From NCBI GenBank assembly GCA_000146045.2, contig BK006947.3, forward strand, positions 576,001 to 640,000: a DNA stretch of 64,000 bases, given 5' to 3'. The notes beneath the pieces are model-generated. The model saw only the letters and a program-made list of their open reading frames with translations. It ran no database searches and was not told where the DNA came from. The translations under genes and the position numbers were made by a program. This DNA is from TPA_inf: Saccharomyces (lineage: Eukaryota). Below, piece after piece: positions 25,775-38,360 of the stretch (the first letter of the stretch is position 1; each line of letters begins with the position of its first letter).

Positions 25775-26311
25775 TATGTGGGCGAAAAACAAAATTAGAC
25801 CAACGCTTTAGCAAATTTTTTCAACCTCAAATTGATATTTGAAGATTAGATCGGATGGTTTTTTTTCCTGTGGTGTAGGCCAAGCTTAAACAAGGTTTTA
25901 AGTGAAAGTGGAAATAATTGTGATAAACATGCGGAAAGAGTGCCAGCCTTAAATAATTCCGCATTGTTGCTATGTCGTTTTGTTTTTGTTTTTGTTTTCG
26001 TCTTATTGGTATTTGTTCATTTTACGACCACAAAGGATCCAGGGCTTCTACTTGCACAGGGAGGGTTGCTTGGTTAATACAATGCAAAGGTCAGAGATAT
26101 TAAGATTTGTGAAGGGTGCATTCAATGAGTTTTTCCTTTAATGTGCCCTAGAAAGGAAGTAGTACGAACATTTCTCAGTCGGAGTTTGCCGGAAATTCGA
26201 ATGACAGTGTAAGTTGATTTTTGTGGCACAGAGATAATGAGCGGTGGTTCTGGCACACATTTGTGACGTTGGTTTGATAGTGTGGAGGGAGGGTGAAAAA
26301 CAGATAACAAT

Positions 26312-26385
26312 GGTCTCTTGGCCCAGTTGGTTAAGGCACCGTGCTAATAACGCGGGGATCAGCGGTTCGATCCCGCTAGAGACCA
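26312..26385 (+). tRNA. tI(AAU)N1: tRNA-Ile, anticodon AAU (74 nt, no intron)
   Basis: GGTCTCTTGGCCCAGTTGGTTAAGGCACCGTGCTAATAACGCGGGGATCAGCGGTTCGATCCCGCTAGAGACCA. Cloverleaf with anticodon loop CUAAUAA, A/B-box promoter elements, followed by a ttcttttttt Pol III terminator. Confidence 0.95.
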
Positions 26386-26906
26386 TTCTTTTTTTACATT
26401 TCTCGCAATGTGATTTATTTTGCTTACCCTTCCCACTGCCGTTACAAGGGAGGTGAACGAAGAGGCTTGTTAGCATAAGGTTTACGCGTTGCGGTTGTAA
26501 GCACAATGTTCTTACTAAACCTCTGAAGATTAATTATCCTAACGTATACTAATTAATTCAAAGAGAATATTTACTCGTTCTCTTTTCATCATTTTGTAAC
26601 ATAATTCTTTACGTATTTTCACTTCGTACTTTTTTCAACTTTTTTTGCCTTCGCTTCTTTTTTGTTGTAATTTTTCAATTTTTTTTTTTCATCGTTGGCC
26701 GTCTTTCCTTGTCCTTCATTTTCCTCTCGTAATAATCATTCAACTACGGTAAAGCATGCCTTTCCTTTTTTCTACTCTGCAGTTATTTTCATAATATCTA
26801 CTGTTTCCATTTCGTGCTTTAAGTTAGAGTTTAATCTTCCCTTCTATCATCTTAATAGCAGGTTCATAATAAGAAGATTACCACATCTACTCTTTGTTCG
26901 ATTCCA

Positions 26907-33685: not shown

Positions 33686-33790
33686 ATGCAAAAACTCCTC
33701 TTTGTCTTTTCTGTGTTATTGACAGTAGTACTAGCAACAGCACCATTTCAGGTACAATGTCCTAGCTCTCCACTTATTAGGGAGGCCAAA
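33686..33790 (+). CDS. SPO1: SPO1 exon 1 (35 codons, signal peptide) of the meiosis-specific phospholipase B homologue
   Basis: ATG at 33686 encodes MQKLLFVFSVLLTVVLATAPFQVQCPSSPLIREAK and ends at a GTAAGT 5' splice site. Joining to exon 2 gives 631 aa, the known Spo1 length. Confidence 0.8.
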
Positions 33791-33874
33791 GTAAGTTAAA
33801 CTCTTTGCCACTTTAACAAATATGGGCCAAAACTAACCGAATATACCAAAACTTCGTATTCCTTTGTTTATTAG
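33791..33874 (+). other. SPO1: Spliceosomal intron of SPO1 (84 nt)
   Basis: 5'SS GTAAGT, branch AACTAAC at 33831-33837, 3'SS TAG at 33872-33874. Exon 2 continues in the frame of the tracked ORF. Confidence 0.8.
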
Positions 33875-35665
33875 CATGAACTCTGTCCAGAAGAAACCTT
33901 GTATCTGAAGAAAAAAAAAATTAAAACGAAGAATAAACTGATTCAGTTTTTAAAATCCTTGACAGAGGCAAAGTTTAGTTCGAAGTTTTATAAACGCGTG
34001 TTGAAAGATCCTCCAAAAATTGGGATTGCTATATCTGGCGGCGGGTACAGATCCATGTTAGTAGGTACCGGATTTATTTCCCAAATGAACGATTATGGCC
34101 TTTTTGAATATTCGGATTATATTGCTGGATTATCAGGCGGAAGTTGGATCTTGATGGATTTGGTAGTTCAAAATTTTGAAGTAAAATCCCTGCTACAAGA
34201 GTGGGACCTTGAAGAGGATCTTTTATTAGGCATACCGGAATTCGATATTTCCGAAGAAGAAATTGTTACCAATGCAAAAAAGGAGTATAATGATAATGAT
34301 TTGAAGATGAAGAAGCGTCAGGGGGGTTCTCTGATTACAAGCTCTTCAAATTTTTATGAACAAATAGAGGAGATCATGAATTCCATAGAAGAAATCCCAG
34401 AAGACTATATGATAACGAAGAGAAACTTGAATCCATTAGCAAGACTAAAAAAAATATTCTTTCCTAACAACACTTTCACTGGAACTGATGCGAAGATTGA
34501 AACCTTTAAAAAAGTGCTAGACTTTTACAAAAGTTTGCATTTGAAAATTAAGCCTAAAAAAATGGAGGGTTTCCAAATATCGTTCACCGATTATTGGGGT
34601 AAAGCAATCGTTCAAAGACTAAAAAAAAATTTCGATGACGATCCCAACCATTCCTTTTCGTTTTCGAAGCTTGTAAACTCGTCTAAAAAATTTAAGGAAT
34701 GCAGTGTGCCGATCCCAATATTCGTTGCAAATTGCAAAAATGGACTTCTTTCAAACGTTATATTTGAATTTACGCCCTTTGAATTTGGATCTTGGGAAAA
34801 TATCCTCAGACTTTTCGTCAAGTTGCCCTATTTGGGCTCAAAAATTGTTTCTGGAAAGGCCGAGAAGTGTATTAATAACTTTGATGATCTAGGTTTTATT
34901 ACTGCGACGTCTTCTTCAATATTCAACAATGTGCTCATCTTCATCTGGAATTTGGCTTCTCAGTCCTCCAGAGAAGCAATGAAAGCTTTGAATATGGTTA
35001 TGGGAATTTTTGGCCTAGGTAAAGAGGAAATATTTAGTATTTCGAAAGACTCCTCGAGATTAGAGACAGACTATGCCGTATATCAACCCAATCCCTTTTA
35101 TCTTTATCCTGAAAAAGACAATGTCCTAACTAACAAAAATCATTTATACCTTGTAGACGGCGGAGAAGACGGCGAGAATATTCCACTCAGAACATTGGTG
35201 ATTCCTGAAAGGGAACTAGATGTAATTTTTGTTCTGGATTCTAGTTCGGATATTGACAACTATCCAAACGGCTCCAAGTTAAAAAGGATATTCGAAAAAT
35301 TAGATGAAGAGAACGTTCATTACCAATTTCCGAACAATGTAAAAACATTCACTCACCCCATTGTTATAGGATGCAATGCTACCAAAAGAACTGGACATGA
35401 TTCATTTTTGCCAATTATAATTTATCATGCCAATGCGAATCATGGAAACGCATCTAATACGTCGACATTCAAAATAACTTACAATCAGTCTGAAGTTAGC
35501 AGTATGTTACCCACTGGAAGGGGAGTGTTTAGCAATGATTATGACCTTTATTATAAAAATTGCTTAGGCTGTATATTAACCAAAAGAACAATGGACAGGC
35601 TCCCAAGAAAAAAGAAATTTTCGCCATTTTGCTTACAATGCTTTAAAGACTACTGTTACTCATAA
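33875..35665 (+). CDS. SPO1: SPO1 exon 2: lysophospholipase (PLB) catalytic domain
   Basis: GIAISGGGYRSM and GLSGGSW phospholipase B motifs; C-terminal Cys-rich tail. Confidence 0.85.
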   Translation, partial: HELCPEETLYLKKKKIKTKNKLIQFLKSLTEAKFSSKFYKRVLKDPPKIGIAISGGGYRSMLVGTGFISQMNDYGLFEYSDYIAGLSGGSWILMDLVVQNFEVKSLLQEWDLEEDLLLGIPEFDISEEEIVTNAKKEYNDNDLKMKKRQGGSLITSSSNFYEQIEEIMNSIEEIPEDYMITKRNLNPLARLKKIFFPNNTFTGTDAKIETFKKVLDFYKSLHLKIKPKKMEGFQISFTDYWGKAIVQRLKKNFDDDPNHSFSFSKLVNSSKKFKECSVPIPIFVANCKNGLLSNVIFEFTPFEFGSWENILRLFVKLPYLGSKIVSGKAEKCINNFDDLGFITATSSSIFNNVLIFIWNLASQSSREAMKALNMVMGIFGLGKEEIFSISKDSSRLETDYAVYQPNPFYLYPEKDNVLTNKNHLYLVDGGEDGENIPLRTLVIPERELDVIFVLDSSSDIDNYPNGSKLKRIFEKLDEENVHYQFPNNVKTFTHPIVIGCNATKRTGHDSFLPIIIYHANANHGNASNTSTFKITYNQSEVSSMLPTGRGVFSNDYDLYYKNCLGCILTKRTMDRLPRKKKFSPFCLQCFKDYCYS

Positions 35666-35835: not shown

Positions 35836-37170
35836 TCAGTTTTTAAGGCCAATTTGATTCAGAACCTTTTCAAGTTCTTCACTTTCCATCTTATCCGAAG
35901 ACGCGATCTGGTGGCATCTAATACTATGCTTCTCGAATATCGTTTCATCAATTTCAATTTCACCATTTTTTAGGTAAACAATATCAGTAATAAAATCTTG
36001 CCATTCAAAGTCATCATTCTCTGAATGGACACCCTTAGATTGCCTATAGCCTGCTATTGCCCTACTCATAGAATCTATGATCATTTGAACGTAGTGTAAA
36101 CCGTCTAAACCAAAAACCTCTCTATCATATTTATTATTTATGAGCAAAACTTTTTTCGTATTATTAGATTCCAAAATTACTTCAGCAAGATTACCAAGAA
36201 TAAGGATTGGGAGTAAACTTGTCATTAAAGAACCGATAGAATAAACGACCATGTCAGCTTTTTTCACCTTGGAAATAGCTCTTGGATTTCCCATTGGTTT
36301 TATCTCTTCGCCATATGGGTTTATATACAATATCCTATGTACCGGAGCAGGTAGATTCTGTGATTCATCAAGCTTGTCAAAATGCAACTGGGAGTTTTTC
36401 AGTTCTGGAAGAATATAGATAGGATTGGCATACTCCTCTTCCGCTTCTTCTTCCTCATCGTCGAGGAGAATTTTCAAATGGTCGTCATAAGAGCCAAGTA
36501 AATGAATAAATTTAGCTGAATGTGCTATGCTATTATCTTTAGGAACAGATTTCGAGGGATGCGATATTTGTGATTGGCCAGTTATCATCTCACCATTCGT
36601 CAACAAAGCCGAGATATGATGTGTGTGATTGGTATTTATACATGGAATAACATGAACTAGAGGACTGCACCTTCCTATCCTCATCATTAGTTCAATAGAT
36701 GCGTCTAGAGAACCTAAAAACAATCTAGCACCAGTTAAGAAAAAATTTCCAATGGATGCACTCTCAAACTGAAATGGATTCGAGTGTTTGATTTTTTTCA
36801 AGAGTTCTGCTTGCATATGGATAATAAAAGAACGACACATTTCCTTAACTTCTATCGAAATATTTTTCCATATGGGATGCGAACCTTCCACTATTTCATT
36901 CCATTCTTTCTTAGCTAATAACTTATCATTAGGTAGCCTATGGCCAAACAACTCGACAAGCTGTTCATCTTGAAGTAGTCTCACTATTCTAGATCTGATA
37001 TCACCAATTGCTGGGCCACCAACTATTCGTAGAATTTCACTTGTGGACCCGCCATTATCTGATATTGGCAATATATACGTCAGCTCATGTCCTTTTAAGA
37101 TAGAAATATTAGAAAAGCAAGGAGTCAATGAATTTGTGGCAGTCCCACCGGAGCACACAACGACGTTCAT
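35836..37170 (-). CDS. Uncharacterised protein of the CofD / YvcK (UPF0052, 2-phospho-L-lactate transferase-like, gluconeogenesis-factor) family, 444 aa
   Basis: N-terminal VVVCSGGTATNSL glycine-rich motif typical of the CofD/YvcK fold. Length and position match YNL011C. Confidence 0.75.
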   Translation of the reverse strand: MNVVVCSGGTATNSLTPCFSNISILKGHELTYILPISDNGGSTSEILRIVGGPAIGDIRSRIVRLLQDEQLVELFGHRLPNDKLLAKKEWNEIVEGSHPIWKNISIEVKEMCRSFIIHMQAELLKKIKHSNPFQFESASIGNFFLTGARLFLGSLDASIELMMRIGRCSPLVHVIPCINTNHTHHISALLTNGEMITGQSQISHPSKSVPKDNSIAHSAKFIHLLGSYDDHLKILLDDEEEEAEEEYANPIYILPELKNSQLHFDKLDESQNLPAPVHRILYINPYGEEIKPMGNPRAISKVKKADMVVYSIGSLMTSLLPILILGNLAEVILESNNTKKVLLINNKYDREVFGLDGLHYVQMIIDSMSRAIAGYRQSKGVHSENDDFEWQDFITDIVYLKNGEIEIDETIFEKHSIRCHQIASSDKMESEELEKVLNQIGLKN

Positions 37171-37634: not shown

Positions 37635-38360
37635 ATGGTCAAAGCTGTTATTTTTACCGATTTCGACGGTACCGTTACTTTGGAAGATTCTAACGATTAT
37701 CTGACCGATACTTTAGGTTTCGGTAAGGAAAAAAGATTAAAGGTCTTCGAAGGCGTGTTAGATGATACTAAGTCTTTTAGGCAAGGTTTCATGGAAATGC
37801 TGGAATCCATCCACACCCCTTTCCCTGAGTGTATCAAGATCTTAGAAAAGAAAATTCGATTGGATCCTGGTTTCAAGGATACATTCGAATGGGCTCAAGA
37901 AAATGATGTCCCTGTCATCGTTGTTTCCAGCGGAATGAAACCAATTATCAAGGTTTTATTGACCAGATTAGTTGGACAAGAGTCTATTCACAAAATTGAC
38001 ATTGTTTCCAATGAAGTGGAAATCGATGCACATGATCAATGGAAAATCATCTATAAGGATGAAAGTCCCTTCGGACATGACAAATCCAGAAGTATCGATG
38101 CTTATAAAAAGAAATTTGAATCTACCTTGAAAGCAGGTGAACAAAGACCCGTTTACTTTTACTGTGGTGACGGTGTTTCTGATCTAAGTGCTGCAAAAGA
38201 ATGTGATTTGCTATTTGCCAAAAGAGGTAAAGATTTGGTCACTTATTGTAAAAAACAAAACGTCCCATTCCATGAATTCGATACCTTCAAAGACATCTTG
38301 GCTAGCATGAAACAAGTTCTGGCTGGTGAAAAGACAGTCGCTGAATTGATGGAAAATTAG
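37635..38360 (+). CDS. PYP1: HAD-superfamily phosphatase (phosphoserine-phosphatase-like; polyol phosphatase), 241 aa
   Basis: HAD motif I FTDFDGTVT at the N-terminus and motif IV GDGVSD. Matches YNL010W. Confidence 0.8.
   Translation: MVKAVIFTDFDGTVTLEDSNDYLTDTLGFGKEKRLKVFEGVLDDTKSFRQGFMEMLESIHTPFPECIKILEKKIRLDPGFKDTFEWAQENDVPVIVVSSGMKPIIKVLLTRLVGQESIHKIDIVSNEVEIDAHDQWKIIYKDESPFGHDKSRSIDAYKKKFESTLKAGEQRPVYFYCGDGVSDLSAAKECDLLFAKRGKDLVTYCKKQNVPFHEFDTFKDILASMKQVLAGEKTVAELMEN

Follow-up and report, generated by a model that had tools for sequence, protein, structure and literature searches.

The stretch of DNA analysed here, hereafter the window, covers 64,000 nucleotides of the Saccharomyces genome (assembly GCA_000146045.2, contig BK006947.3, positions 576,001 to 640,000). 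Its minus strand carries a complete ATG-to-stop open reading frame (ORF) of 444 codons plus stop that spans exactly positions 35836-37170. The product of this ORF, the subject of this study, is 100% identical to the S. cerevisiae protein Ynl011c; with the YNL011C proteins of the congeners S. kudriavzevii, S. uvarum and S. arboricola it shares 89-92% identity. Its assignment to YNL011C in the initial annotation is thus confirmed by both coordinates and sequence. The protein begins MNVVVCSGGTATNSL, its residues 3-15 being encoded at window positions 37126-37164, and the Gly40 codon is placed at chrXIV:613052 in a published variant table (PMC9578706), from which the window corresponds to roughly chrXIV 576001-640000. 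The flanking ORFs agree with the published gene order SPO1-YNL011C-YNL010W-IDP3-ASI3; the two neighbours of YNL011C are a phospholipase-B-like gene and a haloacid dehalogenase (HAD) phosphatase-like gene. The Ynl011c protein was detected by mass spectrometry.

YNL011C is a known gene. Public databases already contain the SGD-style description "protein of unknown function", its placement in Pfam CofD and, for the plant proteins, the labels "YNL011C-like/MEE18", and the family assignment is therefore already known; a search of the accessible literature found no paper that gives YNL011C a function. The present analysis adds the failed membership in the curated YvcK, CofD and GAK families, the recognition of a eukaryote-wide subfamily with a helical hallmark, a metal site that appears retained, a phosphohexomutase neighbourhood in bacteria and a revised count of the mutations in the sec53 evolution lines. 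Such additions make the function of YNL011C testable, without establishing one.

Family, fold and curated models

Ynl011c is a genuine member of the CofD/YvcK (UPF0052) superfamily and is nearer to YvcK than to CofD, as found by profile, sequence-to-PDB and fold comparisons. Residues 3-426 match the Pfam CofD family (PF01933) with E=1.9e-43 and 149.2 bits against a gathering threshold of 30. A phmmer search of PDB sequences retrieved only YvcK-type UPF0052 proteins (2hzb, 2o2z and 2ppv, E~1e-11), with no match to the CofD/FbiA entries 3c3d and 6uvx at E<=1. The fold comparison with CofD and YvcK that had been proposed in the initial annotation was carried out with an AlphaFold2 model of Ynl011c built on 35 yeast homologues, whose predicted local distance difference test score (pLDDT) is 82 and predicted template-modelling score (pTM) 0.83. 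Foldseek ranked the same three YvcK-type structures first among PDB entries (E 2e-17 to 1e-15, target template-modelling (TM) score 0.80-0.84), followed by a second tier of CofD/FbiA structures (E~1e-8, TM~0.6), everything else having E>0.06. All 19 matches at E<=0.001 are YvcK-type or CofD/FbiA chains. The loops SGGTATN (residues 7-13) and SIGSLMTS (residues 311-318) are both present and kept across 73 subfamily sequences. Family membership, originally proposed from the glycine-rich loop near the amino terminus, is thereby upheld, profile and fold searches agreeing on CofD/YvcK instead of revealing a spurious motif on an unrelated fold.

Membership in the superfamily does not extend to its curated families. 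Ynl011c scores 82.8 bits, in three stretches, on the NCBIfam YvcK model TIGR01826, whose cut-off is 196, and other members of its subfamily score 83-114 bits. The CofD equivalog model TIGR01819 has no match to the yeast protein at E<=1. The best-scoring curated model is TIGR04357 (GAK-system CofD-like), on which the yeast protein reaches 103.9 bits and the other members tested (Arabidopsis, glomeromycete and bacterial forms) 100-190 bits, against a cut-off of 340. Because the curated YvcK, CofD and GAK-CofD-like models all fail, Ynl011c cannot inherit a function from them, be it "gluconeogenesis factor" or "LPPG transferase". TIGR04357 is the best match for all members tested; the nearest curated family is therefore one that itself lacks a known function, being defined as a "hypothetical equivalog" with no experimentally known role. 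Ynl011c is neither a CofD nor a YvcK/GlmR orthologue and belongs to a distinct old branch of the CofD/YvcK fold.

The relation to each relative can be detailed. YvcK/GlmR proteins (found in Bacillus, Listeria and, as CuvA, in Mycobacterium) have the same fold as Ynl011c and share with it the GGTG-type loop, the xxDDGGS, GD(I/V)R, SLGN and GSLYTS motifs and the asparagine of "ICN". Identity in the structural alignment is nevertheless only ~16%, and Ynl011c differs by a 57-residue helical insertion and a second loop insertion. The short forms of the subfamily match TIGR04357 end to end (residues 12-383 of the bacterial protein P0263 against positions 2-366 of the 368-position model). Proteins from three further bacterial loci (L010-L012) are intermediate, with 225-290 bits on the same model. 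CofD and FbiA, the 2-phospho-L-lactate or enolpyruvyl transferases of F420 biosynthesis (3C3D, 6UVX), belong to the same superfamily; their Rossmann-like core, the G/P-S-x-x-x-T-S loop and the pair of aspartates that bind metal recur in Ynl011c, but there is no significant direct sequence match to them.

Sequence signature of the YNL011C subfamily

Homologues were searched exhaustively among 1.84 billion cluster representatives. At E<=1e-3 the search yielded 1863 clusters, a number that falls to 241 when the limit is set to E<=1e-30. Motifs and segment lengths were surveyed in the best 150 representatives; residue conservation was counted in 73 full-length members, which come from bacteria, fungi, plants, algae and protists. 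The motifs SGGTxxN, P(I/V)SD(N/D)GGS, GD(I/L)RSR, GQxxISHP, xGSLxTS and NxxxDRE, together with an extra segment of ~57 residues, are common to nearly all full-length proteins among those 150. Seventeen positions named here are invariant in all 73 members: D38, G40, G41, S42, G56, D57, G198, Q199, S203, H204, G313, S314, S318, N345, D349, R350 and E351.

These positions are distributed along the minus-strand ORF as follows. Residues 3-15, VVVCSGGTATNSL (37126-37164), form strand beta-1 and the glycine-rich nucleotide-binding loop, in which G8 and G9 are kept in 70 of 73 members and residue 10 is threonine or serine in 68. Residues 34-48, LPISDNGGSTSEILR (37027-37071), contain D38, the counterpart of FbiA D45 and of Listeria GlmR D40, and the invariant G40, G41 and S42. 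The following segment, GGPAIGDIRSR (residues 51-61, 36988-37020), carries D57, counterpart of D57 in FbiA, and two basic residues specific to the subfamily, R59 (72/73) and R61 (69/73).

The first insertion comes next (residues 81-137, 36760-36930). It is helical, includes W90, W101, R113 and F115, is absent from YvcK and CofD and is the hallmark of the subfamily. In the profile-profile alignment made with hhalign residues 82-131 lie opposite a gap in YvcK. Its length is 55-60 residues in nearly all of the 150 representatives and its helices 83-95 and 106-127 have pLDDT >90 in the model. The insertion, which follows the GD.R motif, is shared with TIGR04357-type proteins, yeast residues 3-206 being collinear with positions 4-201 of that model. 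It was overlooked in the initial annotation, where an acidic tract was singled out instead, and is the more informative of the two.

Downstream, residues 138-161, ASIGNFFLTGARLF.GSLD (36688-36759), correspond to the YvcK-type "SLGN" motif, with G141 and N142 kept in 72 of 73 members. Residues 196-205, ITGQSQISHP (36556-36585), form the subfamily motif GQxxISHP, with G198, Q199, S203 and H204, at the place where YvcK has GES.IP. After the second insertion, residues 308-325, VVYSIGSLMTSLLPILIL (36196-36249), hold the superfamily motif G-S-L-x-T-S with G313, S314 and S318; the CofD version reads PSNPITS, and this stretch is the sole part of the subfamily that aligns directly with CofD. The last conserved block, residues 339-351, KKVLLINNKYDRE (36118-36156), includes N345, the counterpart of YvcK N217/N218, and ends in the subfamily-specific D349-R350-E351 ("DRE"), whereas YvcK has N-G-E at the same place.

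The second insertion (residues 206-278, 36337-36555) has an amino-terminal part of ~45 residues that is predicted to be disordered and a carboxyl-terminal part, YANPIYILPELKNSQLHFDK, conserved within budding yeasts; pLDDT is <50 for residues 205-249 and 263-268. Its length is 11-22 residues in short forms, coming from bacterial contigs and others of unnamed origin, and 40-290 residues in named fungal representatives. The acidic run DDEEEEAEEE (residues 237-246, 36433-36462) lies inside it and recurs in budding yeasts with varying length and sequence. It had been described as absent from bacterial homologues, which is correct, and it is missing as well from the plant and algal members compared and from many fungal homologues. 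Being disordered, variable and fungus-specific, the tract was rejected as a functional element. It is probably an incidental, disordered fungal decoration that lies outside the mechanism and does not define the family.

The conserved residues can be compared with the active sites of characterized relatives. FbiA binds its catalytic cation through D45 and D57 together with the beta-phosphate of GDP, and this phosphate is attacked directly by the acceptor hydroxyl (PMC7253369). The two aspartates correspond to yeast D38 and D57, a mapping that is transitive (a CofD-YvcK profile alignment of 97% probability combined with a YvcK-subfamily alignment) and not a direct superposition. In YvcK, T14, N218, Y265 and R301 contact NAD in structure 2O2Z and affect the binding of UDP-N-acetylglucosamine (UDP-GlcNAc) (PMC5482804). 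YvcK T13/T14 corresponds to T10 and N217/N218 to N345. A "catalytic" triad of D40, D41 and N198 was described in Listeria GlmR (PMC10128056), of which D40 corresponds to the conserved D38 and D41 to N39 (N or D in the subfamily). The centre for nucleotide-diphosphate and metal thus looks intact in the subfamily, while the distal ligand site of YvcK is predicted to be replaced by the subfamily-specific residues R59, R61, R78, Q199, H204, D349 and R350. The subfamily-versus-CofD profile alignment spans only residues 275-335 and the Fo-binding region of CofD falls outside it.

Distribution, phylogeny and gene neighbourhoods

Members of the subfamily were found in fungi of all sampled phyla (Ascomycota, Basidiomycota, Glomeromycota, Mucoromycota and chytrids) and in land plants, where they are labelled "uncharacterized protein YNL011C", "maternal effect embryo arrest 18" or "gluconeogenesis factor". 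Others come from green algae (Polytomella), a dinoflagellate (Effrenium), Euglena gracilis and an amoebozoan transcriptome. No animal protein is among the named matches of the homologue search, which is not proof of absence. Arabidopsis MEE18 (At2g34090) and the other plant orthologues have the same motifs and helical insertion as Ynl011c, plant-type representatives (P0182 and neighbours) being ~37-39% identical to the yeast protein. They differ from it in an amino-terminal extension of 50-100 residues, lacking in yeast, and in having no long acidic loop. In tomato, the protein orthologous to At2g34090 has been found in the stroma of the chloroplast. The name of MEE18 indicates a maternal-effect embryo-arrest phenotype, whereas the yeast gene is dispensable. 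Ynl011c is predicted to be soluble and probably resides in the cytosol, because beta-strand 1 begins at residue 3 and leaves no room for a targeting peptide or a plant-type extension.

Two members of the homologue set, P0263 and P0231, are bacterial and reside on gene-dense contigs with typical bacterial genes. Prokaryotic genomes, one per species, were scanned with an alignment of the short-form proteins. Full-length relatives of 34-53% identity were found only in Parachlamydiaceae/Chlamydiales, Marinamargulisbacteria and a few unclassified metagenome-assembled genomes (MAGs), while ordinary YvcK genes in the same scan have ~25% identity. Peptide patterns specific for yeast had no match in bacterial and archaeal genomes; the relatives surfaced only with the short-form alignment. 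The view of Ynl011c as a bacterial-type protein stranded in yeast has accordingly to be modified: the CofD/YvcK fold stands, but the protein belongs to a eukaryote-wide subfamily whose same form is found in few bacterial lineages.

A phylogeny bearing on horizontal versus ancestral origin, also suggested in the initial annotation, was computed by neighbour-joining on 339 columns with 200 bootstraps. Proteins with the helical insertion separate from YvcK with 100% support. Eukaryotes, Margulisbacteria and Chlamydiae form one clade (99%) that excludes the intermediates L010-L012. Viridiplantae are monophyletic (100%), eukaryotes as a whole only with 57% support. Bacterial members are not nested within plants or fungi, and the plant proteins group with fungi. 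The tree agrees with a gene that is old in eukaryotes and has a small number of sister lineages among bacteria; it is compatible with transfer in either direction.

Several homologues deserve a comment on their gene models. The Marinamargulisbacteria orthologue closest to P0263 (L013:54-1358, 53% identity) is split into ORFs 54-1025 and 1044-1358, a split that may stem from a frameshift or faulty assembly, or may mark a pseudogene. In the chytrid Nowakowskiella the CofD-like domain of an 1823-residue protein (P0188) starts at residue 1156 behind a long amino-terminal region, probably a merged gene model. Two metagenomic members, P0221 and P0228, bear the source label "cathepsin L", an evident misannotation. 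Domain fusions were discarded as a functional clue as ten long homologues carry the CofD domain only. The gene range of the Candida albicans orthologue (L164:6001-7434, 1434 bp) exceeds the need of its 437-residue product and gives no straight-through translation, which suggests an intron or CUG-clade recoding.

The neighbours of the gene at the bacterial loci were compared all-against-all. The sole recurrent neighbour family is phosphoglucomutase/phosphomannomutase. At six Marinamargulisbacteria-type loci, which have diverged as judged from a GC content ranging from 32% to 48%, a phosphohexomutase gene is found 8-141 bp from the CofD-like gene in convergent orientation. The CofD-like gene of a WOR-1 genome is followed, after 98 bp and in the same orientation, by a genuine pgm (787 bits on TIGR01132), and a phosphofructokinase gene is divergent upstream. 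In an Anaerolineae MAG (L012:2670-9149) ilvD (dihydroxy-acid dehydratase), gmd (GDP-mannose 4,6-dehydratase), a GlmM-type mutase gene, a gene for a 307-residue protein without NCBIfam match and the CofD-like gene (290 bits on TIGR04357) follow one another on the same strand. This run resembles a nucleotide-sugar operon without an obvious nucleotidyltransferase. At a Chlamydiales MAG locus a sugar transporter gene is directly downstream of the CofD-like gene. The presence of three mutase subfamilies beside the CofD-like gene in three lineages is unlikely to be due to chance. The bacterial YvcK partner genes yvcJ (rapZ) and whiA are absent from the Pfam- or NCBIfam-scanned neighbours of bacterial members and from beside the yeast gene, although conservation of an operon would not be anticipated for a eukaryotic gene. 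The neighbours of the CofD-like gene at L010-L012 include no GAK partner genes, a comparison inapplicable to the yeast chromosome. Membership in the GAK system was rejected on both counts, score below the 340-bit cut-off and no partner genes at the loci examined.

In the yeast window, the gene assigned by order to SPO1 (phospholipase-B-like) extends over 33687-35665 on the plus strand, although the ORF listing begins only at 33899, with an internal TTG. A short first exon starts with the ATG at 33687 and ends in ...GCCAAAG. Next come GTAAGT (33791), a branch site of the CTAAC type (near 33834) and an AG (near 33875); SPO1 therefore has a 5' intron with the non-canonical donor GTAAGT. On the other side, YNL010W (by gene order) is a HAD-phosphatase-like ORF of 241 codons (37635-38360), divergent from YNL011C across an intergenic region of 464 bp. 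Its product is sugar-alcohol-phosphatase-like, a putative sugar-phosphate phosphatase. The pairing was dropped as a functional clue because neither Komagataella nor Candida albicans (L163, L164) has kept it. The window also has tRNA genes for Ile-AAT, Pro-AGG and Asn-GTT (26311-26386, 55845-55917 and 56598-56673), unrelated to YNL011C.

Candidate roles of Ynl011c

YNL011C is listed as a known genetic interactor of SEC53, the phosphomannomutase gene (PMC9578706). In evolved lines carrying pACT1-sec53-V238M, seven missense and no loss-of-function mutations of YNL011C were reported, more than for PGM1, whose missense suppressors arose in the same experiment (PMC9578706). The changes in evolved clones are G40V, F115L and C168F, with no nonsense or frameshift mutation, and the variant positions given in supplementary file 12 are chrXIV:613052, 612828, 612668 and 612184 (PMC9578706). 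The supplementary table assigns G40V to five clones, all of them with MIC10 R62H and most also with EXO70 C434S and ITR2 M433V. F115L is assigned to one clone, C168F to another and a synonymous change to one, and every one of these changes is heterozygous in diploids (PMC9578706). Because of the shared MIC10 and, mostly, EXO70 and ITR2 mutations the G40V clones are one lineage; the recurrence of G40V in "independent" clones points to shared ancestry or cross-contamination and to an inflated published count of seven. G40 is an invariant glycine two residues away from D38, and F115, located in the helical insertion, is largely conserved (F in 55/73). The data, whose alleles are known only from evolved clones, are suggestive of a link between YNL011C and phosphomannomutase, not conclusive. 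Two other published listings were set aside as clues: a dosage-suppressor fragment for dihydromotuporamine C spans SPO1-YNL011C-YNL010W-IDP3-ASI3 and is not attributable to YNL011C, and the Nfs1 pull-down that names Ynl011c has a long background list.

Combining the conserved residues with gene context and yeast genetics leads us to favour, tentatively and at less than even confidence, Ynl011c as a predicted Mg2+- and nucleoside-diphosphate (NDP)-binding protein, a transferase or a sensor with a leaning to catalysis, that would act where phosphohexomutases feed nucleotide-sugar synthesis. The amino-terminal pocket would hold Mg2+-nucleoside-diphosphate-X, most likely an NDP-hexose (or a nucleoside triphosphate with a hexose-1-phosphate), and the protein would connect phosphohexomutase products with nucleotide sugars. 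Catalysis could consist of beta-phosphate transfer, as in CofD/FbiA, or of nucleotidyl transfer, as reported for Listeria GlmR. A catalytic role is favoured because the metal ligands and the extra residues R59, R61, R78, Q199, H204 and R350 are taken to be invariant or nearly so in the subfamily.

A number of observations weigh against this reading. Y265 and R301 are the YvcK residues that matter most for UDP-GlcNAc binding. Of these, R301 corresponds to K427, a variable position (L/R/V/I) that offers no conserved counterpart. Y265 corresponds to Y399, a tyrosine in only 35 of 73 members, at a place where the forced global alignment has zero confidence. N198 of the Listeria GlmR triad falls on the non-conserved I322. 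The mutase genes that are co-directional with the CofD-like gene (WOR-1, Anaerolineae) accompany intermediate proteins outside the 99% clade that contains the yeast protein; the mutase gene of Marinamargulisbacteria is convergent and therefore not in the same operon as the orthologue. No mutase was found at six other bacterial loci (L001, L004, L005, L007, L009 and L010). The seven hits of YNL011C in the sec53 lines reduce to three independent missense events and one synonymous change. Finally, YNL011C is dispensable in yeast and serves as a neutral marker-integration site.

The main rival proposal is that Ynl011c is a non-catalytic metabolite sensor like B. subtilis GlmR/YvcK, which would bind UDP-GlcNAc or UDP-glucose and, depending on its occupancy, stimulate either the first enzyme of the hexosamine route, in yeast the GlmS orthologue Gfa1, or a different partner protein. 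Among solved structures those of YvcK proteins come closest, T10 and N345 match two of the four YvcK residues that contact NAD or UDP-sugar, and GlmR is described as binding UDP-GlcNAc and acting on GlmS (PMC7525490, PMC6171935). A link to the supply of N-glycosylation would also fit the sec53 interaction. The sensor is nonetheless rather unlikely. The score on TIGR01826 is less than half of its cut-off, R301, needed for UDP-GlcNAc binding in YvcK, is not conserved, and the 57-residue insertion with the subfamily-specific invariant polar residues remodels the protein. YvcJ and WhiA, which accompany YvcK in bacteria, do not fit into the locus in yeast. Both metal-ligand aspartates are invariant, which is more typical of an enzyme.

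A further reading, with quite low expectation, is that the YNL011C/MEE18 subfamily as a whole is an unrecognised enzyme or enzyme-like regulator of the phosphohexomutase step in the eukaryotic cytosol and plastids. It could provide an alternative hexose-1-phosphate/NDP-hexose route, or control the hexose-1,6-bisphosphate needed by PGM-type and Sec53/PMM2-type mutases. If this were true, altered Ynl011c would shift the flux through a crippled phosphomannomutase and loss of the protein would arrest plant embryos.

Improbable, in turn, is a CofD-type transferase that forms phosphodiesters (NDP-X + R-OH -> R-O-P-X + NMP) from non-hexose substrates, such as a donor of lipid head-groups or polyol phosphate, for instance a CDP-linked compound. 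The chemistry and metal site of CofD/FbiA appear retained, and a PlsC-type acyltransferase gene is found one or two genes away at two unrelated loci, L001 and the Parachlamydiaceae locus L004, the former also with cardiolipin synthase and the latter with cytidylate kinase. However, cmk, rpsA and plsC are housekeeping genes and the acyltransferase genes are on the opposite strand, no membrane segment is predicted in the model, TIGR01819 is not matched, and the genetic signal in yeast leads to sugar-phosphate metabolism and not to lipids. Synthesis or salvage of an F420-type deazaflavin precursor, as by a true CofD, which yeast and plants are not known to make and which is favoured only by the Pfam family name and copied labels such as "LPPG:FO 2-phospho-L-lactate transferase", is effectively refuted by the second-tier rank of CofD/FbiA structures in Foldseek, the lack of a 3c3d sequence match or a TIGR01819 match, and the alignment of the GSLxTS stretch alone, without the Fo-binding part of CofD.

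YNL011C is among the remaining yeast ORFs without assigned function, and its plant orthologue bears the embryo-arrest name MEE18. Should the subfamily act at the node between hexose phosphates and nucleotide sugars, it would add a missing player to the supply of glycosylation precursors. This would have a bearing on yeast models of PMM2-CDG (congenital disorder of glycosylation), in which mutations of YNL011C came up repeatedly. A function would likewise follow for ~240 sequence clusters across fungi, plants and protists, and the common ground of their bacterial YvcK, GlmR and GAK relatives would become clearer.

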